Source: Thermoanaerobaculia bacterium (GTDB lineage: Bacteria; Acidobacteriota; Thermoanaerobaculia; Multivoradales; Multivoraceae). From it: a DNA stretch of 64,000 nt. The position numbers were made by a program, and so were the translations under genes. Below the pieces are notes generated by a model. That model made no database searches. It had not been told where the DNA came from and worked only from the letters and a program-made list of their open reading frames with translations. Positions 1 to 14,051 of the stretch are shown piece after piece. Location: assembly GCA_963666565.1 (NCBI GenBank), contig OY762911.1, positions 4,722,145 to 4,786,144 on the forward strand, in the 5' to 3' direction. How positions within the stretch are numbered: position 1 is the stretch's first letter; every line of letters starts with the position of its first letter.

Positions 1-1209
<1,209 letters not shown>

Positions 1210-1265
1210 GGACGGCCGGGGGGGAAGGTGCAAGGCCAGGCGATGCAATCCGGCACGACAGCGCC

Positions 1266-1318
1266 CTGGGTGCGCGGGTCTTCCGACCCGCACTGGGTGC
1301 GCGGGTCTTCCGACCCGC
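1266..1318 (+). repeat. Tandem pair of REP-like palindromes CTGGGTGCGCGGGTCTTCCGACCCGC
   Basis: Two identical 26-bp units (1266-1291, 1293-1318) with internal GCGGGTC/GACCCGC hairpin, in the gltB-gltD spacer. Confidence 0.9.
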
Positions 1319-1378
1319 TTCCGAGTGAACTCGCGCGAGGCGCCAGCCTCGCTCCTTCCTGTTGAGAGGGCGGCAGGC

Positions 1379-2878
1379 ATGGGCAAGGACACCGGCTTCA
1401 AGGAGTACGCGCGCGCCGCGGTTCCCTACCAGGATCCGCTGATCCGCCTGAGTCACTACGGCGAGTTCCTGGCGCCGGTGCCGGAACAGCACCTCGCCAC
1501 CCAGGGCGCCCGCTGCATGGACTGCGGCGTCCCCTTCTGCCAGTCCGACGAAGGCTGCCCGATCGACAACCTGATCCCGGAGTGGAACGACCTCGTCTAC
1601 CAGGGCCGCTGGAAGGAAGCGCTGCGGCGCCTGGAGAGGACGAACAACTTCCCCGAGTTCACCGGCCGCGTCTGCCCCGCCCCGTGCGAGGGCGCCTGCG
1701 TGCTGGGGATCACCGACCCGGCGGTGACGATCAAGAACATCGAGAACGCGATCGTCGACCGCGGCTTCGAGGAGGGCTGGATCGTTCCCCGCCCGCCCGT
1801 CAGGCGCACCGGCAAGAAGGTCGCGATCGTCGGTTCCGGGCCGGCGGGACTCGCCGCGGCGGCTCAGTTGAACGGCGTCGGCCACTCGGTCGCCGTCTTC
1901 GAACGCGAGGACCGCATCGGCGGCCTGCTGATGTACGGCATCCCGAACATGAAGCTCGACAAGCGCCTGGTCGTCGACCGGCGGATCGACCTGATGCGGG
2001 CCGAGGGCATCGAGTTCGTGACCGGCGCCCACGTCGGCGTGAACGTCGACGCCGCCGATCTGCGGCGCGACCACGACGCGATCCTGCTCGCCTGCGGCGC
2101 GACGAAGCCGCGCGATCTCCCCATCCCGGGCCGCGAGCTCGCGGGCGTCCATTTCGCGATGGACTTCCTGACCGAGCACACCCGTGCCCTTCTCGACGCC
2201 GATCTGCCGAGTGACGGCGCCCACCCTGTCCAGGCGCCGATTCACGCATCCGGAAAGAACGTCATCGTGATCGGCGGCGGCGACACCGGCGCCGACTGCA
2301 TCGCGACCGCAGTGCGCCACGGCTGCGCCTCGCTGGTTAACTTCGAACTGCTGGAGCGGCCGCCGGACGACCGGGCCGCCGATAACCCGTGGCCGGAATG
2401 GCCCCGCATCTTCCGCGTCGAGTACGCGCACGCCGAAGCCGCGGCCCGGTTCGGCGCCGACCCGCGCGTGTTCTCCGTTCTCTCCAAGCGCTTCGTCGAC
2501 GACGGCGCCGGCGGCGTCGCCGGTATCGAGACCGTCCGCGTCGCCTGGAAACGGGACGCCGGCGGCCGCTTCGCGATGGAGGAAGTGCCCGGAACCGAAG
2601 AGACCTTCGAGGCCGAACTCGTGCTCCTGGCAATGGGCTTCCTCGGCCCCGAAGCGACTCTCGGCGAGCGCTTGGGCCTCGCCACGGACGAGCGCAGCAA
2701 CTTCGCGGCAGAACCCGGCCGGTACGCGACCTCGGTCGAGGGGGTCTTCGCCGCCGGCGACTGCCGCCGCGGACAGAGCCTGATCGTGTGGGCGATCGCC
2801 GAGGGCCGCGGCGCCGCGGCCCGGATCGACGAGTACCTGACCGGGGCCACCGAACTGCCGCTGCCGTCGGCGCTCTGA
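1379..2878 (+). CDS. gltD: Glutamate synthase small subunit
   Basis: [28 protein letters not shown] and GGGDTG motifs; follows gltB; ATG at 1379 (MGKDTGF). Confidence 0.97.
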
Positions 2879-3049
2879 CCACCCTCCGTTCTGGTCGAAC
2901 AGATCGAACACCTCGATGCGGCATCCCACCGCGCGAACCCGACAGGTGTGCTCTTGACTCCTCGGAGGAGGACATCAGGGACTACTCCACCGGCGAGCTT
3001 CCAAGGGCGATGTTCAACTGAGATGGGCTGCACCAAGAGGTGCCCTCAC

Positions 3050-3524
3050 TCCATCTCTGCACCCCCGCCTTCGCGGCCGTCGACAAGGCCTTGGCCGCTC
3101 GGCGCCCCAACGCGCCGCTTGAAGCCGCGCCCTACCACACGCCCCATCACGACGGAACCTGATCCCAACTCAGAGTCCAGAAGCCGAGCGACCGCCGAGC
3201 TACTCGCCGCCCACAACCAGTCGATCACCAGCGCATCGAACAACGCACCGAAACGAGAGTCTCCCTCCGACCAGGGTGCGCTGATCGTGAGAACCCCCGT
3301 GCTCCGCGCACCGCACGCGGAGCACGTCCGCGGCCAAGATGGTCCGGTACGCTGCCGGATACGGGGGTCCCGATCTCGGCATCGCAGGTACCTCCTCCTA
3401 CGAGGAGGAAGTGCCTGCGGAACCGGGGCAAGCTCAACTCGTCCCCCTTCGATTCGGAAGGCCCCAGTGGTCTTCCGCCTTTCCCCCGGCATGCGACAAG
3501 GTCAATGAACGTCTTCGGAGAGCC
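3050..3524 (-). pseudogene. Frameshifted, truncated ISL3-family transposase relic
   Basis: Fragments YRTILAADVLRVRCAEHG and VLTISAPWSEGDSRFGALFDALVIDWL..SSAVARLL lie in different frames; ISL3-like terminus GGCTCT begins at 3524 on the minus strand. Confidence 0.75.
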
Positions 3525-4113
3525 AGTACCCGAACGCTTTCTCCAGATTCTCTCTGGCAGAGCTAACCGCTTGGCGCACATACTCGGCTTCAGAATCGGC
3601 ACGAATCCGACTCAGCTCTCGCCGAACCGTAGTCAGGATCCGAGTAGCATTGCGCATATCGGGATGCCGTGCATACGGGCGAAGGGCACGACGATGTTCC
3701 AGAAGTGCGCGGAGACTCCAATCTCGCAGTTCTGGGTGGCTGTACATGGGCTCTGTCGTTCTCGTGTCTGAGACACCATCCAAGATGCGAAAGACGATCG
3801 TCGCTTTGTAGTTCTCTGCAGCCATCCAGTCTGGATCATGCCAAGAGTCGAGTCTACTAAGGGCGTTCTCCACTCGCGTCGGAACCTCGACGTCGATCAG
3901 GCGCACCATGCGATCCTCTTCCTTCGCTTCGGCGAATTCTCCTTGGAAAAACGAAAAGAGAATCGGCAGGGAGACAACGGCTAGAGAAGGCAGTAGAGCC
4001 ACAAAGAAAGGCTCGTTCAGGAAACGCCATAGGCCTCGGCGCTGTCCCTTCATTGGGCCAGGCTCACAAGTGGCCTGTATCTTCGATTCGTCGGCTGACG
4101 CGCTACTCTTCAC
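3502..4113 (-). CDS. Hypothetical protein with N-terminal membrane segment (island cargo)
   Basis: 203-aa ORF in lower-GC DNA; hydrophobic stretch PFFVALLPSLAVVSLPILFSFF; the last codons overlap the ISL3 end. Confidence 0.6.
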   Translation of the reverse strand: MKSSASADESKIQATCEPGPMKGQRRGLWRFLNEPFFVALLPSLAVVSLPILFSFFQGEFAEAKEEDRMVRLIDVEVPTRVENALSRLDSWHDPDWMAAENYKATIVFRILDGVSDTRTTEPMYSHPELRDWSLRALLEHRRALRPYARHPDMRNATRILTTVRRELSRIRADSEAEYVRQAVSSARENLEKAFGYWLSEDVH

Positions 4114-4184
4114 CCAAAGCGTCTCCCTGGTGTCAGCGGTTCCGAGAGAGTAGGGGGCCTCTGGCTGGGGGCGCTCAACCTAGC

Positions 4185-6590
4185 CTAGAAGCTGAACCGA
4201 GCGCCAATCTGTAACTGACGCCAGGACGTGACTCGGCCGGACGGTATGCCGAGGTCTTCGGGAACTACGCCGCCCTCCACGTTTCGCTGGCTGAAGCCGA
4301 CCGCGAAGCTGTGTTCGTCGAATAGGTTAAAGGCCTCGACGAACACGTCCAGGCGCATTTCATCGCCGAACCGGAAGAACCTGCCGACGCGGACATCGAC
4401 CGTCTGGAGCGACTCGTTCCTGAAGGTGTTTCGTCCTACGACGGAACCATCGATGATGGCTCGGTAGTCGGGGCAGTTGAAGATGGGCCACCCGCAGCCG
4501 ATACTGTCGAAGCCTCGGACGGGTGTGTCGCGGTCGTTCACATCAACGGCCGTGTACGGCGTTCCCGACTGGTAGTTCAGGATGCCGGAGATCTGGAAGT
4601 CGGCCGGCAACTGGACCATGCCCGTAACTACGAGCCGGTGCTTCACGTCACGATCCGAGAGGCCCCAGTCGTAGTCCAGGTTGCCGGTGTCGGAGATCGT
4701 GACGCCGGTCGCCGAACGCTCGTTCGAGTCGGTGTCGCGATCCTCGCCCCAGGTGTAGTGGGCGCCGAACTGGTAGCGACCGGTGAAGCGCTTGTTCGCC
4801 TTGAGCGTGACCGCCTGATACTCGGACTCGCCCCGAGACTGGCGAACGAGGACTTCGGCGCACCGGATTTCGTCGAGACCCGGGCACACGTCATTGCGGC
4901 CGGCCCACATCGGGCGGCCGTACGGGTCGTAGCCGCCGAAGACCCGGTTGAAGTCCGTGTTGCGCTGCAGGCTGGTCGCTTCGGCATACACGGCATCGAC
5001 GCCGGCGCTCCAGCCGCCGCCGAGTTCCCGCTCCCAGCCGACGCTGGCGCGCAGCGTTTGGGCGTCGTCGAACTCGGGATCCACGTACGAGATGGCGGGA
5101 ATGATGCCCGGCGGCGGGTTCTCGTTGTCGATCTGCGTCCCGAGCGGCACGTAGCCGTTCTGGCCGGGACGAACCGTGATGCGACCGTAGTTCGGCGGTA
5201 CGCCGTTGGCCTGAACCTGGTTGGCGAACAGCAGGGTGGGCGTGCGGCCGAAGAAGAAGCCGATGCCGCCGCGGAGGACCGACCGGCCCTCGTCCTGGGA
5301 CCTGGCGAAGCCGAAGCGGGGCGCCAGGTTCTCGGTGTCCGGGATCTGGCGGCCGTCCGGGTGCAGGTGATCCAGGCCGTCCGGGTTGTCCGTGGACGTA
5401 TAGCGGAGGCCGTAACTGATTGTCACGTTGTCCCGCTTGAGACTGTCCTGCCCGTAGAAGGCGAGGGCCTCCTGAGTCTCGTCGTAGTTCGGGTACGTCG
5501 AATCGCCGAACCAGATTCGCGCCCGGAAAGCCTCGTTGCTCAAGAAGTCCTCCGGCGAGCCGAAGTCATAGCGGCCGTCGCGGCTGCCGGCGAAGAGCTG
5601 CGCCAGATCGTCCTTCGAGTAGTCGACGCCGAACTTCATGTCATGGGCACCGAACAGGTAGGAGAAGTCGTTCTTGACCTGGAGCTGCTCTTCCTCAACG
5701 AAGATCGGGAGGAAGTCGAACTTGCCAACGCTGTCAAACTCGTCGAAGAAGAAGCGGACCTGCGCCTCGATTGGCGTGCCGACCCGCTTGGACAGGCGAT
5801 CCAGATTGTCCGTCGCGGACTGAATCCGGAACTCGTTGACGCCACGGCTGCCGACGACCGAGGTCATCGATGCGATGATGGACAGCGTGTCCTCCGTCTT
5901 CAGCGACTCCTCGTCCAGGTAGTCGCTCTCCCGCTCGAAGTCCGTCACATTGGCGCGCAGGGTGATGAGGTTCGAGTCGTTGATCTGGTGGTCCAGCTTG
6001 CCGAAGAGGATCTGGTTGCTCACCGAGCGCAGGAACAAGCCGGTGGCGGAACCGTCGGCGTTTCGCTCGAAGCCGTCGACCAGAGCCGCGAATCCGGGCT
6101 CTGTCTCCGCCCTCTTCATGATCAGGTCGTAGGTGCTGTTGACGCCGGTCGAGCGCAGCGAGCGGGAGAACGGGATGTCCTGGTCGCGGAGGTCGACGCC
6201 GAAGTAGTAGTGGGTGCGATCCTGCTTGAACGGACCACCGACCGAGAAGCCGTAGTTCTGGGTGTCGAACTCGTCCACCGGTCGCGAGCCGTCACGGCCC
6301 CGGAAGTCGTCGAGAGGCGACGAAGGAATGTCCTCGGCCATGCTGTCGTCGCGGAACTGGTAGAAGGCCGAGCCCCTCATCTCGTTCGTGCCGGACTTCG
6401 TGACCACGTTGACGAAGGCGCCGCCGTGCCGGCCGTACTCGGCCGAGAAGCCGTTGGTGATGACCTGGAACTGGCGAACCGTGTCCTGGGCGATGATCAG
6501 GCCGTCGTTCTCGGTCGCCTCGCCGCCCCGGCCATAGCCGAAGAAGGTGCTCTTGTTGTCCGCGCCGTCAACGGAAAGGCCGCTGTACAT
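4185..6590 (-). CDS. 5'-truncated TonB-dependent receptor cassette (801 aa, no signal peptide or N-terminal domain), paralog of 8368-11301
   Basis: Colinear with the full-length receptor from MYSGLSVDG to C-terminal RFSF; in-frame TGA two codons upstream of the ATG; no internal stops. Confidence 0.9.
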   Translation of the reverse strand: MYSGLSVDGADNKSTFFGYGRGGEATENDGLIIAQDTVRQFQVITNGFSAEYGRHGGAFVNVVTKSGTNEMRGSAFYQFRDDSMAEDIPSSPLDDFRGRDGSRPVDEFDTQNYGFSVGGPFKQDRTHYYFGVDLRDQDIPFSRSLRSTGVNSTYDLIMKRAETEPGFAALVDGFERNADGSATGLFLRSVSNQILFGKLDHQINDSNLITLRANVTDFERESDYLDEESLKTEDTLSIIASMTSVVGSRGVNEFRIQSATDNLDRLSKRVGTPIEAQVRFFFDEFDSVGKFDFLPIFVEEEQLQVKNDFSYLFGAHDMKFGVDYSKDDLAQLFAGSRDGRYDFGSPEDFLSNEAFRARIWFGDSTYPNYDETQEALAFYGQDSLKRDNVTISYGLRYTSTDNPDGLDHLHPDGRQIPDTENLAPRFGFARSQDEGRSVLRGGIGFFFGRTPTLLFANQVQANGVPPNYGRITVRPGQNGYVPLGTQIDNENPPPGIIPAISYVDPEFDDAQTLRASVGWERELGGGWSAGVDAVYAEATSLQRNTDFNRVFGGYDPYGRPMWAGRNDVCPGLDEIRCAEVLVRQSRGESEYQAVTLKANKRFTGRYQFGAHYTWGEDRDTDSNERSATGVTISDTGNLDYDWGLSDRDVKHRLVVTGMVQLPADFQISGILNYQSGTPYTAVDVNDRDTPVRGFDSIGCGWPIFNCPDYRAIIDGSVVGRNTFRNESLQTVDVRVGRFFRFGDEMRLDVFVEAFNLFDEHSFAVGFSQRNVEGGVVPEDLGIPSGRVTSWRQLQIGARFSF

Positions 6591-6750
6591 GCCTCACTGG
6601 TCGGGCTTCAGTTCCATGAAGGTCCGAAGAGCAGGAGAGAGTCCGGGAACAACCGAGAACTCCTGTAGACACCGTCACTTGTGAAGGTCTCGTTACGTTG
6701 CCCAAGGCCGCGGATGCGGTTGACGGCAAACGGCAAATCGCCGACGGGAT

Positions 6751-6778
6751 TGGGGGAAGTGGGGGACACGGTGAGGGA
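6751..6778 (+). promoter_or_regulatory. Candidate integrase arm-type binding repeats TGGGGGA/TGGGGGA/TGAGGGA
   Basis: Three short direct repeats just upstream of the integrase start; similar G-rich repeats commonly precede P4-like integrases. Confidence 0.4.
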
Positions 6779-6811
6779 GTGCCATACGGCCGTCCTTGCT
6801 ATGTTCGAGCG

Positions 6812-7948
6812 ATGCCCCTTACCCAACGGAGAGTCGACGCCGTCAGACCCACCGGCCGGCCCTTCAAGCTGTACGACCGCGACGGCCTGATGCTCAGGGT
6901 CACCGCCGCCGGCAAGAGCCGATGGGTCTGGAGAGGCGTCGTCAAGGGAAAGCGGATCGAGGTCGGCATGGGCTCGACACGTTTCCGCTCGCTGAAGGAG
7001 GCAAGGGAGGTCGCCTTCGAGAATACGAGAACGGCGAGACTGGGAGGCGATCCCAGAGCGGCCGTGTCCTCTGACGTTCCGACCTTCAGGGAAGCCGCGA
7101 CGCTCTATCTGGAGATCCAGTCCACCGATTGGGGAGAGGCCCACTCCCGCCAAGTCAGACGGATGCTGGAGCGCCATGCGTTCCCGGGCTTCGGGGACCT
7201 TCCGGTAGACGAGATCCAGACCGCCGACGTGATGCGGGTTCTGGTACCGCTGTGGCGGCGTCAGAGGCCGACCGGACAGCGGCTCAGGCAGAGGATCGCC
7301 GGCGTCATGGCGTGGAGCGTAGCGGCGGGCTACCGGGCCGACGATCCGACGAGCACTCTCTCGGCGGTCTTGCCCGCCGGCCGGACGCGGCGGAAGCACC
7401 ATCGCTACCTGCCCGCCGTCAAGCTGCGCGAAGCACTGGTCAAGGTGCAGGACTCCGGAGCATGGATCGGAACGCGGTTGGCCATGCGCTTCCTGGCGCT
7501 GACGGCGGCGCGCTCCGGCGAGGTGCGTGGAGCGAGGTGGCGGGAGATCGATCTGGAGTCGGTCACGTGGACCGTTCCCGCCTCGCGGATGAAGGCGCGC
7601 CGTGAGCACCGGGTCCCCCTCTCCAGCGCGGCCCTTGCGGTCCTTGAGCGGGCCGGCGGACTTCGGGGTCGGGGCAGAGGGCTCGTCTTTCCCGGCGTCC
7701 AGGGGAAGATGGTCGGTGTGTCGGTGTTCGGTCGGCTGCTGAGAGACCTCGATATCGATTGCAGCCCGCACGGGTTCCGCAGTGCGTTTCGGTCGTGCTG
7801 CTCCGACGAGGGGATCGACCGGGAGTTGGCGGAACAGGCCCTGGCACACGCGGTCGGGAGCCAGGTCGAGCAGTGCTATGCGCGAAGCGACGTGCTGGAG
7901 CGCCGCCGAGACGTCATGGAGGCTTGGGGTGCGTTCCTGGTCCAGTAG
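6812..7948 (+). CDS. P4-like tyrosine integrase with N-terminal arm-binding domain
   Basis: N-terminus LTQRRVDAVRP..KLYDRDGLMLRV..G..RWVWR; catalytic R (ARSGEVRG), K (MKARREH), HxxR (HGFRS), H (LAH) and Y (QCYARSD). Confidence 0.93.
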   Translation: MPLTQRRVDAVRPTGRPFKLYDRDGLMLRVTAAGKSRWVWRGVVKGKRIEVGMGSTRFRSLKEAREVAFENTRTARLGGDPRAAVSSDVPTFREAATLYLEIQSTDWGEAHSRQVRRMLERHAFPGFGDLPVDEIQTADVMRVLVPLWRRQRPTGQRLRQRIAGVMAWSVAAGYRADDPTSTLSAVLPAGRTRRKHHRYLPAVKLREALVKVQDSGAWIGTRLAMRFLALTAARSGEVRGARWREIDLESVTWTVPASRMKARREHRVPLSSAALAVLERAGGLRGRGRGLVFPGVQGKMVGVSVFGRLLRDLDIDCSPHGFRSAFRSCCSDEGIDRELAEQALAHAVGSQVEQCYARSDVLERRRDVMEAWGAFLVQ

Positions 7949-8190
7949 CGGACGGACCGGACATGCAGGGCCGTGGTCCAGGCTCGCGCCGCAGCTTCGC
8001 CGCGGCGCGGGGGGCTTTCCCAGGGGCAATCCAGTCCCCTGGGCGGAGCCACGGAGCTGGCCCTGCCGTTGGCTCATAGACAGCCGGATCGAGCGCCTCC
8101 GCGAAGGCTTCAACGCCCCGGCGGAGACTCTCCGCGTGAAGTCCGCGAACCGTGCCGTCGATTCAATATCTTGAAGCGAGCCGCCCTCCG

Positions 8191-8220
8191 TTGACGGGGG
8201 GCGAAGCGATTCTCTATAGT
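8191..8220 (+). promoter_or_regulatory. Sigma70-like promoter of the TonB receptor (TTGACG-N18-TATAGT)
   Basis: Near-consensus -35 and -10; TTCAA-N4-TTGAA palindrome at 8162-8175 just upstream. Confidence 0.6.
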
Positions 8221-8367
8221 CGTACCCGGTCTGTGGCCTTGCGCGCGAGCGCCCCACCACCGCCACCCACTCGGACAATCGAGAGACCTTCCACGCGTGA
8301 AGCGCACGCCGGTGAATTCGTGCCGAATTCGACGGCGCCTACTCAGACACAGAGGAGAAACCCCACC

Positions 8368-11301
8368 ATGCAGTCGACCCGCCTCCGGGCACGTCTTCTT
8401 GCGACCCTCCTGGCAACGGCCTGCGTCCTCCTGATCGGCGGCGCCGGCTTCGCCCAGACGATCACCGGCACCGTCCAGGGCTACATCTCGGATGTCGAGG
8501 GCGGCCCGATTCCCGGCGTCACGGTGACCGTCACCAACCAGGACACCGGCATCGCCCGCGCCGCCATCGCGGACGCCAACGGCTTCTACAGCGCCAAGGC
8601 GCTCCAGGTCGGCACCTACTCGGTGACCGCCGAACTCGCCGGCATGCAGACCACGCAGCAGAGCGACGTCTCCGTCCTGGTCGGCCAGATCAAGGACGTC
8701 AACCTGACCCTCGAGGTCGAGTCGACCTCCGAGGTGATCACCGTCACGTCCGAGGCCCCGATCATCGAGGTCAGTCGTTCGGGCGCCGCCAACTACATCG
8801 ACGAGGTCGCCATCGAGAGCCTGCCGATCGTCGGCCGCGACTTCACCGACTTCGCGATTCTCACTCCCGGCGTCCAGCGCGACCGTTCCCGCGGCTTCCT
8901 GACCATGGCCGGTCAGCGCGGCATGTACAGCGGCCTGTCGGTCGACGGCGCGGACAACAAGAGCACCTTCTTCGGTTACGGCCGCGGCGGCGAGGCCACC
9001 GAGAACGACGGCCTGATCATCGCCCAGGACACGGTGCGCCAGTTCCAGGTCATCACGAACGGCTTCTCGGCCGAGTACGGCCGGCACGGCGGCGCCTTCA
9101 TCAACGTCGTCACGAAGTCCGGCACGAACGAGCTCAGGGGTTCGGCCTTCTACCAGTTCCGGGACGACAGCATGGCCGAGGATCTGCCGTCCTCGCCGCT
9201 CGACGACTTCAACGACCGCGACGGCTCGCGTCCGGTGGACACGTTCGACACCCAGAACTACGGCGTCTCGATCGGCGGGCCGTTCAAGCGCGACCGTACC
9301 CACTACTATTTCGGAATCGACCAGCGCGACCAGGACATCCCGTTCACCCGGTTCCTGACCAACCGCGGCGGCAGCGTCTATGACCTGGTCATGCAGCGAG
9401 CGCAGAGCGAGCCCGCCTTCGCCGCCCTGGTGGACGGCTTCGAGCGAAACTCCGACGGCTCCGCCACCGGCCTGTTCACGCGCTCGGTGAGCAACCAGAT
9501 CCTGTTCGGCAAGCTGGACCACCAGATCAGCGACGCGAACCTGATCACCCTGCGAGCCAACTGGACGGACTTCGAACGGGAGAGCAGCTTCCTCGACGAG
9601 GAGTCGCTCAAGACGGAGGACACGCTGTCGATCATCGCGTCGATGACCTCGGTCGTCGGCAGCCGCGGCGTGAACGAGTTCCGAATTCAGACGGCCGACG
9701 ACAACCTGGATCGCCTGTCCTTGCGGGTCGGCACGCCGATCGAGGCGCAGGTCCGCTTCCGCTGGAACGGCGCGAGCGTCGGCAAGTACGACTTCCTGCC
9801 GATCTTCGTGGAGGAGTCGCAGCTCCAGGTCAAGAACGACTTCTCCTACCTGTTCGGCGCCCACGACATGAAGTTCGGCGTCGACTACTCGAAGGACGAC
9901 CTGGCCCAGCTCTTCGCCGGCAGCCGCGACGGCCGCTACGACTTCCGCTCGCCGGAGGACTTCCTGTCCAACAACTCAAGCGCCGCCCGGATCTGGTTCG
10001 GCGATTCGACCTATCCGAACTACGACGAGACCCAGGCGGCTCTCGCCTTCTACGGCCAGGACAGCCAGAAGCGCGACAACATGACGATCAGCTACGGCCT
10101 CCGCTACACGTCCACGGACAACCCGGACGGTCTCGATCATCTGCATCCGGACGGCCGCCAGATCCCGGACACCGAGAACCTGGCGCCCCGCTTCGGCTTC
10201 GCCATGGCCCAGGACGAGGGCCGGTCGGTTCTCCGCGGCGGCATCGGCTTCTTCTTCGGGCGCACGCCCACCCTGCTGTTCGCCAACCAGGTTCAGGCCA
10301 ACGGCGTGCCGCCGAACTACGGCCGCATCACCGTCACTCCCGGCGAGAACGGCTACGTGCCGCTCGGAACGCCGATCGACAATGAGAACCCGCCGCCGGG
10401 CATCATCCCCGCGATCTCCTACGTCGACCCCGAGTTCGACGACGCCCAGACGCTGCGCGCCAGCATCGGCTGGGAGCGGGAGCTCGGCGACGGCTGGAGC
10501 GCCGGAGTCGACGCCGTGTACGCGGAGGGCACGAGCCTGCAGCGCAACACGGACTTCAACCGCGTCTTCGGCGGCTACGACGAGTACGGTCGCCCGATGT
10601 GGAACGGCCGCAACGAAGGAACCTGCCCCGGAGTCCCGGGCGCCGAATGCGCCGAGATCCTGGTTCGGCAGTCCCGCGGCGAGTCCGAGTACCAGGCGGT
10701 CACGCTGAAGGCGAACAGGCGCTTCACCGGCCGCTACCAGATGAGCGCCCACTACACCTGGGGCAAGGATCGCGACACCGACTCGAACGAGCGTTCGGCG
10801 ACCGGCGTCACGATCTCGGACACCGGCAACCTCGACTACGACTGGGGTCTCTCGGACCGCGACGTCAAGCACCGTCTGGTGGTCACCGGCATGATCCAGT
10901 TGCCGCTCGACTTCCAGATCTCGGGCATCGTGAACTACCAGTCGGGTACCCCGTACACGCTGGTCGACAACGGCGTCGACTGGGCTTACTGTCGCACGGT
11001 CGGCTGGAACTGCCCGGACTACCGTGCGGTGATGGACGGCGTCGTCGTCGGCCGGAACACGGAGCGGAACGAGTCGATCCAGACGATCGACGTTCGCCTC
11101 GGCAAGTTCTTCACCTTCGGCGACGGCATGCGGCTCGACGTCTTCGTCGAGGCGTTCAACCTGTTCGACGAGAACAGCTTCGGCGTCGGCTTCAACCAGC
11201 GCAACATCCGCAACGGCAACGTTCCCGACGACTTCGGGGTCCCGTCGTACCTGACGACGCGCCCGCGCCAGTTGCAGATCGGAGGCCGGTTCAGCTTCTA
11301 G
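8368..11301 (+). CDS. Full-length Oar-like TonB-dependent receptor with carboxypeptidase-regulatory-like N-terminal domain
   Basis: AGAGGAG RBS, signal peptide (..GGAGFA-Q), GTVQG..D..GGPIPGVTVTVTN, plug motif FSAEYGRHGGAFINVVTKSGTN, terminal Phe. Confidence 0.95.
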   Translation: MQSTRLRARLLATLLATACVLLIGGAGFAQTITGTVQGYISDVEGGPIPGVTVTVTNQDTGIARAAIADANGFYSAKALQVGTYSVTAELAGMQTTQQSDVSVLVGQIKDVNLTLEVESTSEVITVTSEAPIIEVSRSGAANYIDEVAIESLPIVGRDFTDFAILTPGVQRDRSRGFLTMAGQRGMYSGLSVDGADNKSTFFGYGRGGEATENDGLIIAQDTVRQFQVITNGFSAEYGRHGGAFINVVTKSGTNELRGSAFYQFRDDSMAEDLPSSPLDDFNDRDGSRPVDTFDTQNYGVSIGGPFKRDRTHYYFGIDQRDQDIPFTRFLTNRGGSVYDLVMQRAQSEPAFAALVDGFERNSDGSATGLFTRSVSNQILFGKLDHQISDANLITLRANWTDFERESSFLDEESLKTEDTLSIIASMTSVVGSRGVNEFRIQTADDNLDRLSLRVGTPIEAQVRFRWNGASVGKYDFLPIFVEESQLQVKNDFSYLFGAHDMKFGVDYSKDDLAQLFAGSRDGRYDFRSPEDFLSNNSSAARIWFGDSTYPNYDETQAALAFYGQDSQKRDNMTISYGLRYTSTDNPDGLDHLHPDGRQIPDTENLAPRFGFAMAQDEGRSVLRGGIGFFFGRTPTLLFANQVQANGVPPNYGRITVTPGENGYVPLGTPIDNENPPPGIIPAISYVDPEFDDAQTLRASIGWERELGDGWSAGVDAVYAEGTSLQRNTDFNRVFGGYDEYGRPMWNGRNEGTCPGVPGAECAEILVRQSRGESEYQAVTLKANRRFTGRYQMSAHYTWGKDRDTDSNERSATGVTISDTGNLDYDWGLSDRDVKHRLVVTGMIQLPLDFQISGIVNYQSGTPYTLVDNGVDWAYCRTVGWNCPDYRAVMDGVVVGRNTERNESIQTIDVRLGKFFTFGDGMRLDVFVEAFNLFDENSFGVGFNQRNIRNGNVPDDFGVPSYLTTRPRQLQIGGRFSF

Positions 11302-11355
11302 GCTGAGCGGTGCCAGAGCAGCCGCGGCGCCCGAGGCCGCGGCAAAGAGAAATCG

Positions 11356-11383
11356 AGGGCCTCCCCAGCAACGGGGAGGCCCT
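11356..11383. terminator. Intrinsic terminator hairpin, probably bidirectional
   Basis: AGGGCCTCCCC-agcaac-GGGGAGGCCCT between convergent genes, with A-rich and T-rich flanks. Confidence 0.75.
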
Positions 11384-11409
11384 TCTTCGTCAACGATCGC
11401 GGAGCGGCT

Positions 11410-12378
11410 TCAGAGCCGGAGAAGTCGAAGGAGTTCCGCTTCGTCGGCACACATCTGCGCCGCCTTGGCGATCTCGACCTCGGACAAGCCGCGGAGGCCG
11501 GCCAGGCGTTCGGCAAGGTCCGGGCTCGTCGGTACGCCGCGCGCATCGAGCACGGCGACCGCCATCCGGGCACGCCCTGCGGCGAGGCCCTCGTCACGGC
11601 CCTCGTCGCGCTCAGCTCGCAGCCACGGATCGTCGTCCGGGCCGGTACCCTCGAGCGCGCCCATAGCGCGGCCCACGCGACGGAGAACCTCCAGGGTCTC
11701 CGGCGACGGCAGGTCGCGGCTCAGGGCAACGTGGATCTCTTCGGCGGTCCAGCCCGGAAAGGCCCGGCTGGAGGCCGCTTCCCGGAAGCGCTCGCCGTGG
11801 TGAAGGTGAATCGTCAGACCGGACAGCAACGACCTCGGATACGAGCGTTCGTCCGGCACGTCGATCCAGACCTCCGGGAAGCCCCAAGCCTCGTACAGCG
11901 GCAGCTTCCACAACCGCGCGTCGGTCGAGTAGTCGACTTCCAGCACGACGTCCGGCAGTTCGCCGCCGTCAATGTCCACCCGCGCCCCGGCCGGCAACGC
12001 GGCCGGATCCAGGTAGAGGATCTGGTCGGCCTGCATCAGCACCCTGTACCCGCCGTCAGCCTTGGCGCGCACCAGATCCGCCGTCCCCAACGTCTCGATC
12101 GGCGCGCCTCTCGACGCCGCGATGCGCTCGGCCAACCTGGCCAACCGCTGCGAGGGGCGCTCGTGATAGACGGTCGTCGGTTCGCGCAGGACCATGGCCC
12201 GCTCCGTGCGTTCCTCCCAGTACTCCACGCGGCCCTCGTAGTCGTCGATCCGCTCCTTCGGGATCCGAACCGTCCGGCAACCGGACTCGGCGGCCAGGGC
12301 CAGCGGCGATGCAACCGGCTCGGGACGTCCCGCTTCCGGCGGCCGCGGGTTCGGGGTTCGGACGGGCGGTTCAGCCAT
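11410..12378 (-). CDS. Uma2 (DUF820)-like PD-(D/E)XK endonuclease-fold protein
   Basis: HERPS.., QADQILY, LPDVVLEVDYS, KLPLYEAWGFPEVW and a C-terminal EGRDEG tail. Confidence 0.8.
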   Translation of the reverse strand: MAEPPVRTPNPRPPEAGRPEPVASPLALAAESGCRTVRIPKERIDDYEGRVEYWEERTERAMVLREPTTVYHERPSQRLARLAERIAASRGAPIETLGTADLVRAKADGGYRVLMQADQILYLDPAALPAGARVDIDGGELPDVVLEVDYSTDARLWKLPLYEAWGFPEVWIDVPDERSYPRSLLSGLTIHLHHGERFREAASSRAFPGWTAEEIHVALSRDLPSPETLEVLRRVGRAMGALEGTGPDDDPWLRAERDEGRDEGLAAGRARMAVAVLDARGVPTSPDLAERLAGLRGLSEVEIAKAAQMCADEAELLRLLRL

Positions 12379-12399
12379 GGCCCGAGCGTACACCGGCGC

Positions 12400-12545
12400 T
12401 CGGGCCTTCGGCAGCGAGAACCCGGACTGCGGAACGTCGCGGTCGAGAAAGGTCTCCACGAAACTCTGGCGCCACAGGGCGGACAGGTCGCCGTCCTCGG
12501 CCAGAAAGCTGCGAGGGAACCCGCCCCGCAACCAGAGCTTCCGCC
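12400..12545 (-). pseudogene. Short internal fragment of an AAA/DUF4143-type ATPase gene
   Basis: LWLRGGFPRSFLA...WRQSFVETFLDRDVPQ resembles that family's mid-protein motif; no P-loop nearby. Confidence 0.55.
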
Positions 12546-12623
12546 ATCCGCCTGGAGTTGCTTGAAAATCGCTCGGTCAAGAGACGATTTTCCCGAAACT
12601 TCCGGTGCGGACCGCGTCTCAGG

Positions 12624-13898
12624 CTACCCGGCCACCCAGGGAATCGTCTGCGGACCTTCGGGCAGCACGCAGATGCGCGCGTCGGGCCGCGCCGCCACGC
12701 ACTCGGCGAGCGCGTCGTCGAGGTCGGGCGCCGGCTCGAAGTGCGCGGCGGCAAGCTGCTCCCCGCTCAGGCCGTCCGCCTTGACCAGCACCCGGGCGCG
12801 GCGCTGGATCAGCGCCTGAACCTGGACCTGCCACTGATCTGGCTCGGTCGTCGGACGAGCCTCGATCTGCTGGAGCAATTCCTCGGGCGAGCCGCCGCGG
12901 CCGAGCAGTTCGGCGTAGCGGCCGTGGTCCGGAATGCCGTCGCTGCACTCGGCCGCGCAGAGGATGGTTCCGCCGTCGGCGACCACCTGCGCGGCCGCCG
13001 ACATCCCCTTGACCGCCTGGTAGAGGTTCTGGTCGAGCGGGTAGCCGGAGTTCGTCGTCACGACGACGTCGAACCGGTGGCCGGTCTCCCGCATGGCAAT
13101 CGGCTTCGCGGTCGCGCAGGCCCGCCGGTGCATCTCGAAGAGTTCGCCAGCGAAGACGTACGTGATCCTCTGCTGCCGGTCGAGCAGCACGTCGACGCTG
13201 AAGTGCGGCTTCGCCTCCGGCCGCGCCGCGATCGCCCGGATGTCGCCGTGCAGCGGGTTGTCGTCGATGATCCCCCAGGTCGACCGCGGATCGCCCACGC
13301 GGGCGGCGTCGTGCAGGGTGAGCACCGTGTCGAGCCCGGCGAGCCCCGGCGCCACCATCTTCGGGCCGCCCGAGAAGCCCGCGAAGAAGTGCGGCTCGAC
13401 GAAGCCGGTCGTGATCCGGAGGTCGGCCTCCAGCCAGTGGCGGCAGAGCCGGGTCGGGACGCCGGCGCCGGTCTCTCCCAGGTCGACGAGCGAGGCGTCG
13501 TCGCGGGCGTCGTGGTTGACCACGCGGCAGGCGCCGAGGATCTCGTCGCCCAGCATCGCCCGGAGTTCGGCCCGCGTGTTGGCCCGATGAGTGCCGGTGG
13601 CGATCAGGATGGTGACGTCCTCCGGGCGAACGATGCCGTCGAGTTCCCGCAGAACCGCGGCGACCATCTCCCGCCGCGGCTGCGCCCGGGTGATGTCGCA
13701 CACCGAGATCGCGACGGTCTGTCCCGGCTTCGCCAACTCGCGGAGGGGCGGTCCGGCGACCGGTCGCCGCAGCGCCGCTGTCAGAGCCGCGGCCGGTTCG
13801 TCCAGTGCGGGCGCCTGGATCGGCTCGATCACGGTCGTCCGCTCGCGCGGCACGTTGATCGTCAGGCCGCTGCGGCCGTAGGCCAGGCGCACACGCAT
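12624..13898 (-). CDS. larA: Nickel-dependent lactate racemase family protein
   Basis: CDITR, IATGTHR, NHDA, EPHFFAGFSGGPKMVAPG and PLDQNLYQAVKG motifs. Confidence 0.9.
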   Translation of the reverse strand: MRVRLAYGRSGLTINVPRERTTVIEPIQAPALDEPAAALTAALRRPVAGPPLRELAKPGQTVAISVCDITRAQPRREMVAAVLRELDGIVRPEDVTILIATGTHRANTRAELRAMLGDEILGACRVVNHDARDDASLVDLGETGAGVPTRLCRHWLEADLRITTGFVEPHFFAGFSGGPKMVAPGLAGLDTVLTLHDAARVGDPRSTWGIIDDNPLHGDIRAIAARPEAKPHFSVDVLLDRQQRITYVFAGELFEMHRRACATAKPIAMRETGHRFDVVVTTNSGYPLDQNLYQAVKGMSAAAQVVADGGTILCAAECSDGIPDHGRYAELLGRGGSPEELLQQIEARPTTEPDQWQVQVQALIQRRARVLVKADGLSGEQLAAAHFEPAPDLDDALAECVAARPDARICVLPEGPQTIPWVAG

Positions 13899-14051
13899 GA
13901 GCGAACTCTACGCGCCTGCCCTCACGGTCTGCTCGCGGCGCCGCCGCCTCGCTCGAGAATCGGCCACTGACCGACCGATCTTCAAGGATCTTGAGCGGAG
14001 GGTCCGAGTGTCGGTGCGCCGGCCTTCCGGCCGGCTGCCAGCGGAGGCGGC

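Follow-up and report, generated by a model that had tools for sequence, protein, structure and literature searches.

The 64,000-nucleotide window analysed here, the terminal 64 kb of a single-contig, 4.79-Mb Thermoanaerobaculia genome of about 70% G+C (contig OY762911.1; genome G000 below), carries two versions of one receptor gene lying head to head. The intact version, R (8368-11301, plus strand), encodes a full-length Oar-type TonB-dependent receptor of 977 amino acids. The headless version, C' (4185-6590, minus strand), derives from a foreign allele of that neighbouring gene and keeps its 3' four-fifths: 801 codons and a stop, equivalent to R residues 186-977, which take in the plug from its midpoint on and the entire barrel. 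Between the two lies the gene of a tyrosine integrase. The pattern of substitutions shows that C' was constrained at the protein level, outer loops included, after its 5' end was lost. We tentatively propose that C' is a silent alternative barrel, to which inversion of a 2.3-kb segment could bring the promoter and the 5' end of R, a reading that we consider quite possible, if somewhat short of probable. The original prediction for this DNA had noted a receptor cassette without export signals; beyond it, we find that C' belongs, as cargo or as flank, to an integrase element whose insert is lineage-limited.

The open reading frame (ORF) of C' contains no stop over its 801 amino acids, and BLASTP aligns it with R at 681 identical positions of 802 (85%) with 11 gap positions. 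The alignment covers residues 258-1049 of the frame at 8152-11301, which are residues 186-977 of the protein that starts at the ATG at 8368. At the DNA level the homology ends at 6604 in C' and 8909 in R, and an in-frame TGA (6596-6594) stands two codons 5' of the C' ATG. R has a hydrophobic N-terminus, a CarboxypepD_reg domain and a complete plug in one polypeptide, as a TonB-dependent transporter should, and matches the Pfam families CarboxypepD_reg and OMP_b-brl_4. C' does not have this makeup: it has neither a signal peptide nor a CarboxypepD_reg domain, the plug lacks its first half, and OMP_b-brl_4 is its only Pfam match. Profile matches to the PDB place the plug at about residues 120-255, a region that matches FepA, Cir and PirA. 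No other close 5' part was found in the genome, where the next best match is 36% identical. Over the whole copy, Nei-Gojobori counts of 178.7 differences at 557 synonymous sites and 168.3 at 1816 nonsynonymous sites give a synonymous divergence (dS) of 0.418, a nonsynonymous divergence (dN) of 0.099 and a dN/dS ratio of 0.237. Amino-acid identity ranges from 0.45 to 1.00 across 40-codon windows. Exact DNA tracts of at least 25 nucleotides number 13, the longest being 58 nucleotides (10147-10204 in R, 5303-5360 in C'). AT decay of C' was considered and rejected: its G+C content at third codon positions, 0.881, lies at the low edge of the ortholog range of 0.882-0.952 and is not a clear outlier.

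Selection after the cut can be gauged from a second genome of the genus, G050, which shares with G000 the junction, the 207-nucleotide region upstream of the integrase gene (J, 6605-6811), the integrase and the spacer 3' of it. J is non-coding and mismatches between the two genomes at 15.9% of positions, and the integrase gene shows a dS of 0.184 (dN/dS 0.145); these values put the neutral divergence since the two blocks had a common ancestor at about 0.16-0.18. Over their 546 shared codons, C' and the G050 copy differ at 80 sites, with 57 synonymous and 22 nonsynonymous changes (dS 0.165, dN 0.018, ratio 0.109), whereas neutrality predicts a nonsynonymous share of 0.765 (binomial p 8e-20). 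In the loops alone, 7 of 21 changes are nonsynonymous (ratio 0.16, p 4e-5). Because dS here is close to the neutral yardsticks and dN is low, the coding sequence was under constraint after the cut, in its loops as elsewhere. An unselected frame of 801 codons would stay open with a probability of about 0.003 at half of the neutral divergence on its branch. Compared with 35 orthologs, C' has a median ratio of 0.182, which equals the 0.180 obtained for 404 pairs of orthologs taken from the same range of dS. These values strengthen the suggestion in the original prediction that the divergence looks purifying-selected, while its other proposal, a recent truncation, fails on a cut that is common to two genomes whose copies differ by a dS of 0.165. 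With an open frame and ratios of 0.11-0.24, C' does not qualify as a pseudogene in G000; the copy in G050 does. A candidate third headless copy is P0060, a protein of 792 amino acids that starts MAGQRG and lies on a 17-kb contig; searches did not recover that contig, with best matches of 85% among genome contigs and 84% among metagenome contigs.

The receptor itself is well conserved: 23 of the 24 other genomes of the genus have it as a single-copy ortholog, 84-93% identical. Built on an 84-sequence alignment, an AlphaFold2 model of R reached a mean predicted local distance difference test score of 91.3 and a predicted template modelling score of 0.87. Its top Foldseek matches are the TonB-dependent transporters YddB (6ofr) and FusA (4zgv), at E 1e-34, and R fits the Oar-like transporter fold with a predicted 22-strand barrel and an N-terminal plug. 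DSSP finds 22 long strands after the plug, and the connections between them strictly alternate between long ones of 7-61 residues and short ones of 2-4 residues. In the topology of TonB-dependent transporters the long connections are on the extracellular side; we assigned them as loops L1-L11, with sidedness based on this alternation in the model. Receptor alleles that have lost most of the region from CarboxypepD_reg to the plug by internal deletion were also seen, namely P0006 (881 amino acids), without about 100 residues, and L096, without residues 111-194.

Mapped onto this model, the differences between C' and R amount to 72 of 356 residues in extracellular loops, 31 of 337 in strands, 2 of 71 in the shared part of the plug and 6 of 28 in periplasmic turns, the last being a small number. 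Loops exceed the remainder (39 of 436) with a Fisher odds ratio of 2.6 (p 8e-6), all 11 indel residues fall in L2, L4, L8 and L10, and the changes in strands are mostly of the V/I/L type. Judged on the modelled barrel, the enrichment in loops is genuine, but not exclusive. The original prediction that the two genes differ mainly in probable extracellular loops was right about the direction and too strong in its wording: loops hold 65% of the substitutions, L6, L7 and L9 are almost unchanged (3 of 109), and the turns have changed at a similar rate. The five variable segments that it pointed to map to L2, L4, L8, L10 and L11. Its four peptide pairs and the last divergent segment are all present in the alignment, the Cys pairs that it described as kept occur in both proteins, and the 52-nucleotide tract that it cited (10766-10817 and 4693-4744) is exact. 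Columns at which C' and R differ are also variable among 34 orthologs (mean variability 0.274 versus 0.051 at identical columns, p 6e-47). By these columns C' resembles just another allele of the genus. Its place is inside the genus tree, and the receptor tree is mosaic.

The position of the cut points to the integrase element. The integrase gene (6812-7948, plus strand) encodes 378 amino acids with Arm-DNA-bind_3, Phage_int_M and Phage_integrase domains in Pfam, and 12 other loci of its family are alike to about 205 nucleotides upstream of the start codon and then continue into three unrelated flanks. In a 13-sequence alignment J is conserved in these 12 loci up to the C' junction, and their similarity begins exactly at the C' cut. 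The junction word, GCCCGACCAGTGAGGC (6591-6606, minus strand), stands immediately before the C' ATG and contains the in-frame TGA; both the integrase module and the homology to R end there. On the strand opposite the integrase, the end of the module reads GCCCGACCAGTGAGGC in the window and ATCGCCCGGCCAGCGTGGC in the family locus L054. Within R, the word ATGGCCGGTCAGCGCGGC (8905-8922, plus strand) lies immediately before codon 186, is inverted relative to the C' junction and is similar to the word that terminates the modules of this integrase family. Every receptor ortholog has a word of this kind, and the orthologs read ATCGCCGGCCAGCGCGGC at the same place. The junction word aligns with GGCCGGTCAGCGCGGC in R, the next 14 bases being identical, and the family end in L054 is nearer to the ortholog consensus. 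We infer that this word was probably the site of a past recombination between a receptor gene and an element of this integrase family.

A comparable case comes from a metagenome contig (L124, 4706-7398). There, a different tyrosine integrase (43% identical) is divergent to a receptor fragment 192 nucleotides away; the fragment starts at residue 505 and has larA after it, as in the native setting. In a genome of the genus (L078, 15075-15714), two receptor 3' fragments (residues 765-883 and 880-977, 74-80% identical) lie about 2.7 kb downstream of an intact receptor on the same strand. In three family loci (for example L059, 8875-10106) the J end is flanked by a methylguanine-methyltransferase-like gene and then an FGE-sulfatase gene; the start of the former is about as far from the integrase as that of C'. 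The family reaches 11 matches in one genome. In several of its loci (among L049, L051, L054, L056 and L058) the last 140-380 nucleotides of the integrase gene recur as a direct repeat downstream, at distances from less than 1 kb (L058) to about 6.6 kb, mostly 4-5 kb.

C' and the integrase occupy an insert of about 5.2 kb (window positions ~2879-8044), which we recognize as such because all 14 relatives examined join gltD directly to the spacer upstream of the receptor. The gltD gene, for the glutamate synthase small subunit (1325-2878, plus strand; Pfam Fer4_20 and Pyr_redox_2), provides the left edge with its 3' end (2843-2878). A decayed second copy of that end (8045-8079, plus strand) forms the right edge, after which the native spacer begins; the two make an imperfect direct repeat, matching at 25 of 35 positions by a count made by eye, and in the relatives L028 and L035 the alignments extend back to 8038. 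As with a genomic island, the site is empty in the relatives, and a repeat of the target flanks the insert. Its left part (2879-4184) holds two dispersed repeat units, of about 250 and 93 nucleotides at 3100-3436, which are multi-copy both in G000 and in 30 of the 41 other genus genomes, and an orphan ORF (3502-4113, minus strand) to which no Pfam family matched; the remainder of the left part was found in G000 only. The spacer 3' of the integrase gene (7949-8044) is common to G050 only. No tRNA gene was found in the window, nor beside the J ends of the 12 family loci. Attempts to derive the order of gltD, inverted remnant, integrase, native spacer and R from a single insertion plus a single inversion or deletion did not succeed. 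In five relatives (L022, L024, L025, L026 and L031) gltD, ending in CTGCCGTC, is joined directly to CGATTCAAC, with a few bases different in L031 and L022. This joint is the expected product of a deletion between two TGCCGTCG words of G000 (2862-2869 and 8153-8160) and may be a scar of insert loss.

The integrase is a single copy in G000. G050 has it at the same place and 94% identical, the only such near-identical copy among 42 genus genomes, while other copies of the family, 42-90% identical, occur in 22 of the 41 other genus genomes. Host genes have diverged about twice as far between G000 and G050 as the island (dS 0.425 for gltD, 0.331 for larA and 0.30 for R), and two genomes nearer to G050, G006 and G014, have no insert; the block has therefore moved between lineages. 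Co-transfer of the R 5' part with the insert was entertained and discarded: dS over codons 1-90 is low against G050 and equally low against the insert-free G006 and G014.

The geometry of the locus is what a two-state switch would need. The head-to-head genes form inverted homologous arms of about 2.4 kb (4185-6604 and 8909-11304), and between them the 2.3-kb segment contains the integrase gene, a promoter-like site upstream of R (TTGACG-18-TATAGT, 8191-8220, plus strand), which relatives have too, and R codons 1-185. Recombination between the arms would flip this segment, joining the only 5' part in frame to the barrel of C' and leaving the present barrel headless. This may be through the integrase, acting at the junction word and at its look-alike in R. 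Alternatively, RecA could act in any one of the 13 exact tracts, and any in-register crossover would preserve the frame. A cell would then display either of two receptors, whose differences lie mostly in L2, L4, L8, L10 and L11. Occasional expression of C' would explain its constraint, and the second module-carrying genome would be one that has lost the switch. It is tempting to go further and to see a portable switch, in which a small integrase element brings an inverted headless barrel beside a single-copy Oar-type receptor. Its attachment word would mimic a conserved plug-coding word, so that the integrase flips the segment of promoter plus 5' part, and the two-state receptor could spread between species. 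We think this extended version rather unlikely.

Several observations weigh against a switch. The module is rare, being present in 2 of 42 genus genomes, and among 15 integrase loci and 40 receptor loci checked, the inverted receptor repeat around an integrase recurs only in the G050 counterpart. That copy is dead, with a TAG at codon 175, unrelated DNA past codon 546 and a 2-nucleotide indel before the ATG. The integrase, by its domains and relatives, looks like an ordinary three-domain island integrase (P4-type) of a multi-copy family. Nor is the 14-nucleotide core word rare, with 7 occurrences at up to two mismatches in the window against 3.9 expected; what counts is the position of the word, not its rarity. 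A consensus scan, a weak test, gave no sigma-70-like promoter facing C' in J. No full-length protein more than 87% identical to C' is among the matches listed from about 5.8 billion proteins. The loops of R in G000 and G050 are of ordinary ortholog types. Contigs of three samples from one study, and of four sequencing runs in all (X1, X3, X4 and X7), which drop rare forms and break at shared 31-mers, contain no strand-changing joint over positions 1-14000; one of them runs from C' through J, the integrase and the 5' part into R, the reference arrangement. The orientation of C' is identical in both module-carrying genomes. Apparent variant letters at 9900/9906 and 6456/6477 were set aside as bases of the paralogous copy, from cross-mapped short contigs. 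In run X7 the insert is absent, yet one 293-nucleotide contig of lower depth is 95.6% like C' 6009-6301.

Signs of exchange between the copies run in one direction. Two clusters, together 24 differences, look as if the resident R had overwritten the copy, at codons 294-331 in G050 and 433-452 in G000, and this too counts against a switch; both candidate tracts are conserved segments. We found no tract where R took C' sequence. A run test on C' and R gave a longest concordant run of 28 polymorphic sites (p 0.009, not adjusted for the 35 comparisons made), and all orthologs conserve the tract concerned; the G050 copy against its own R gave p 0.32. By itself this test is not sufficient evidence of conversion. 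The original prediction of loop-by-loop gene conversion into the expressed gene is not borne out: the loops of R are ordinary in both genomes, the candidate tracts lead from R to the copy, and no mosaic was seen. The search for mosaic alleles that it called for likewise yielded neither a mosaic nor an inverted form in the contigs of the four runs, from which rare forms escape.

If C' is not a stored barrel, it may be a relic, and we take this to be a real possibility, though a doubtful one. An integrase element would have cut a receptor gene at a core-like word, and the 3' remnant would have travelled here. It would have stayed gene-like through patching from working alleles, whether the resident R, the near-identical R of earlier hosts (that is, concerted evolution) or incoming DNA; it is perhaps a recent arrival and would go on to decay as in G050. 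Perhaps most of the patching took place in earlier hosts with a C'-type receptor, before transfer. The coincidence of the cut with the module end fits such a history, as do the recurrence of receptor debris beside mobile elements (the fragments of L124 and L078), the broken copy in G050 and the scarcity of the module. Patching is also suggested by the two overwritten clusters and by the 16 orthologs in which both alleles are present at 47 of the 80 sites that separate C' from the G050 copy, and a mosaic receptor tree with C' nested in the diversity of the genus is compatible with it. The island dS of about half the host dS indicates a block that moved. However, the changes outside the two clusters still stand at 39 synonymous to 18 nonsynonymous in a hand count. 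The loops are too unlike R to have been patched from it and keep markers of their own (28 sites shared by C' and the G050 copy and absent from the 16 orthologs), yet their ratio remains 0.16. The run test offers little to this account at its uncorrected p value, no working C'-type allele above 87% turned up among the matches listed, and the frame is open across all 801 codons.

Plain decay of C' is excluded because the constraint was measured after the cut. We find it very improbable that C' is simply a young pseudogene, whether duplicated from the resident gene or freshly truncated, that has had too little time to decay. Its open frame and preserved barrel would suit such an origin, and the 0.24 ratio to R could all predate the cut. 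C' is no duplicate of R, from which it differs by a dS of 0.42 and apart from which it is placed in the genus tree. The cut also predates the split of the G000 and G050 copies, since when synonymous changes have outnumbered nonsynonymous ones as given above, and the shared spacer 3' of the integrase opposes two independent origins of an identical junction. We give hardly any credence to the idea that C' is translated from its own ATG and works as a protein by itself. A GAGG does stand just 5' of that ATG, the three family loci with the methyltransferase-like gene have a gene starting at the same distance from the integrase and in the same direction, and the constraint is at the protein level. 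An outer-membrane beta-barrel protein needs export to reach the membrane, though, and this one has no signal peptide and lacks half of its plug; moreover, the GAGG is only 1 nucleotide from the ATG, and the 2-nucleotide indel of G050 lies upstream. The silent alternative barrel remains the reading that we prefer, with the tentativeness stated at the outset.

Downstream of R, the stretch at 11385-12630 is missing in several relatives, in which the receptor leads almost directly to larA, and is found at 73-77% identity in two others. Sponge, coral-reef or marine metagenomes make up most of the sequencing runs in which parts of the locus recur, and none of the 24 runs listed was an RNA run.

Surface receptors of this type take up nutrients and also serve phages and toxins as docking points. 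If the proposed switch is real, a switching logic of gut Bacteroides would also be present in Acidobacteriota associated with sponges and corals. If, moreover, the switch is packaged on a mobile insert, the variability of the receptor would itself be transferable between species. Even as a relic, C' would be a clean example of a truncated gene in which protein-level constraint can be measured after the truncation, and the locus would show integrase elements using a conserved word within a receptor gene. Judged by titles and the openings of abstracts, we found no report in the literature of a TonB-dependent silent cassette with gene conversion of loops, and nothing under the name 'Candidatus Multivorans'.

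Three kinds of known system invite comparison. Silent-cassette gene conversion, as in Neisseria pilE/pilS, Treponema pallidum TprK and Borrelia VlsE, draws on many short cassettes and produces mosaic expressed genes. C' resembles such cassettes as a promoterless partial copy that keeps its frame and whose variable parts match surface-exposed segments, with loops changed more often than strands in the counts above. It differs in being a single copy of 2.4 kb with no mosaic expressed gene, and its candidate transfers run only from the expressed gene to the copy. Islands with P4-type integrases leave gene remnants at their attachment junctions. The arm-binding, core-binding and catalytic domains of the integrase, the repeat of the target 3' end that brackets the insert and the fragment that ends at the module end are all in keeping with that class. 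Here, by contrast, the target is gltD and not a tRNA gene, and the fragment is 801 codons long, intact, constrained and inverted beside an intact homologue.

The closest parallel is a shufflon of Bacteroides thetaiotaomicron, in which two 5'-truncated TonB-dependent transporter genes and one full-length gene exchange their 5' ends at a 7-bp site together with the tyrosine recombinase BT1041 (10.1101/521070). There, the rearranged forms of BT1040/BT1042/BT1046 and their dependence on the recombinase were shown by polymerase chain reaction, and phage pressure was proposed as the driver (10.1101/521070). Each gene of the shufflon heads its own operon and the piece that is missing is an N-terminal extension. 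The locus in G000 departs from this: there is one spare copy, cut inside the plug and inverted, the lineage-limited insert that carries it has a three-domain P4-type integrase, the host belongs to a sponge-associated genus of the Acidobacteriota, and no rearranged form was seen. What the two have in common is a full-length transporter gene, a 5'-truncated one and a tyrosine recombinase gene in a single locus, with a sole complete 5' end that could move to another gene body. On this likeness we regard the locus as a possible form of recombinational receptor switching, a putative function carried on an integrase insert.

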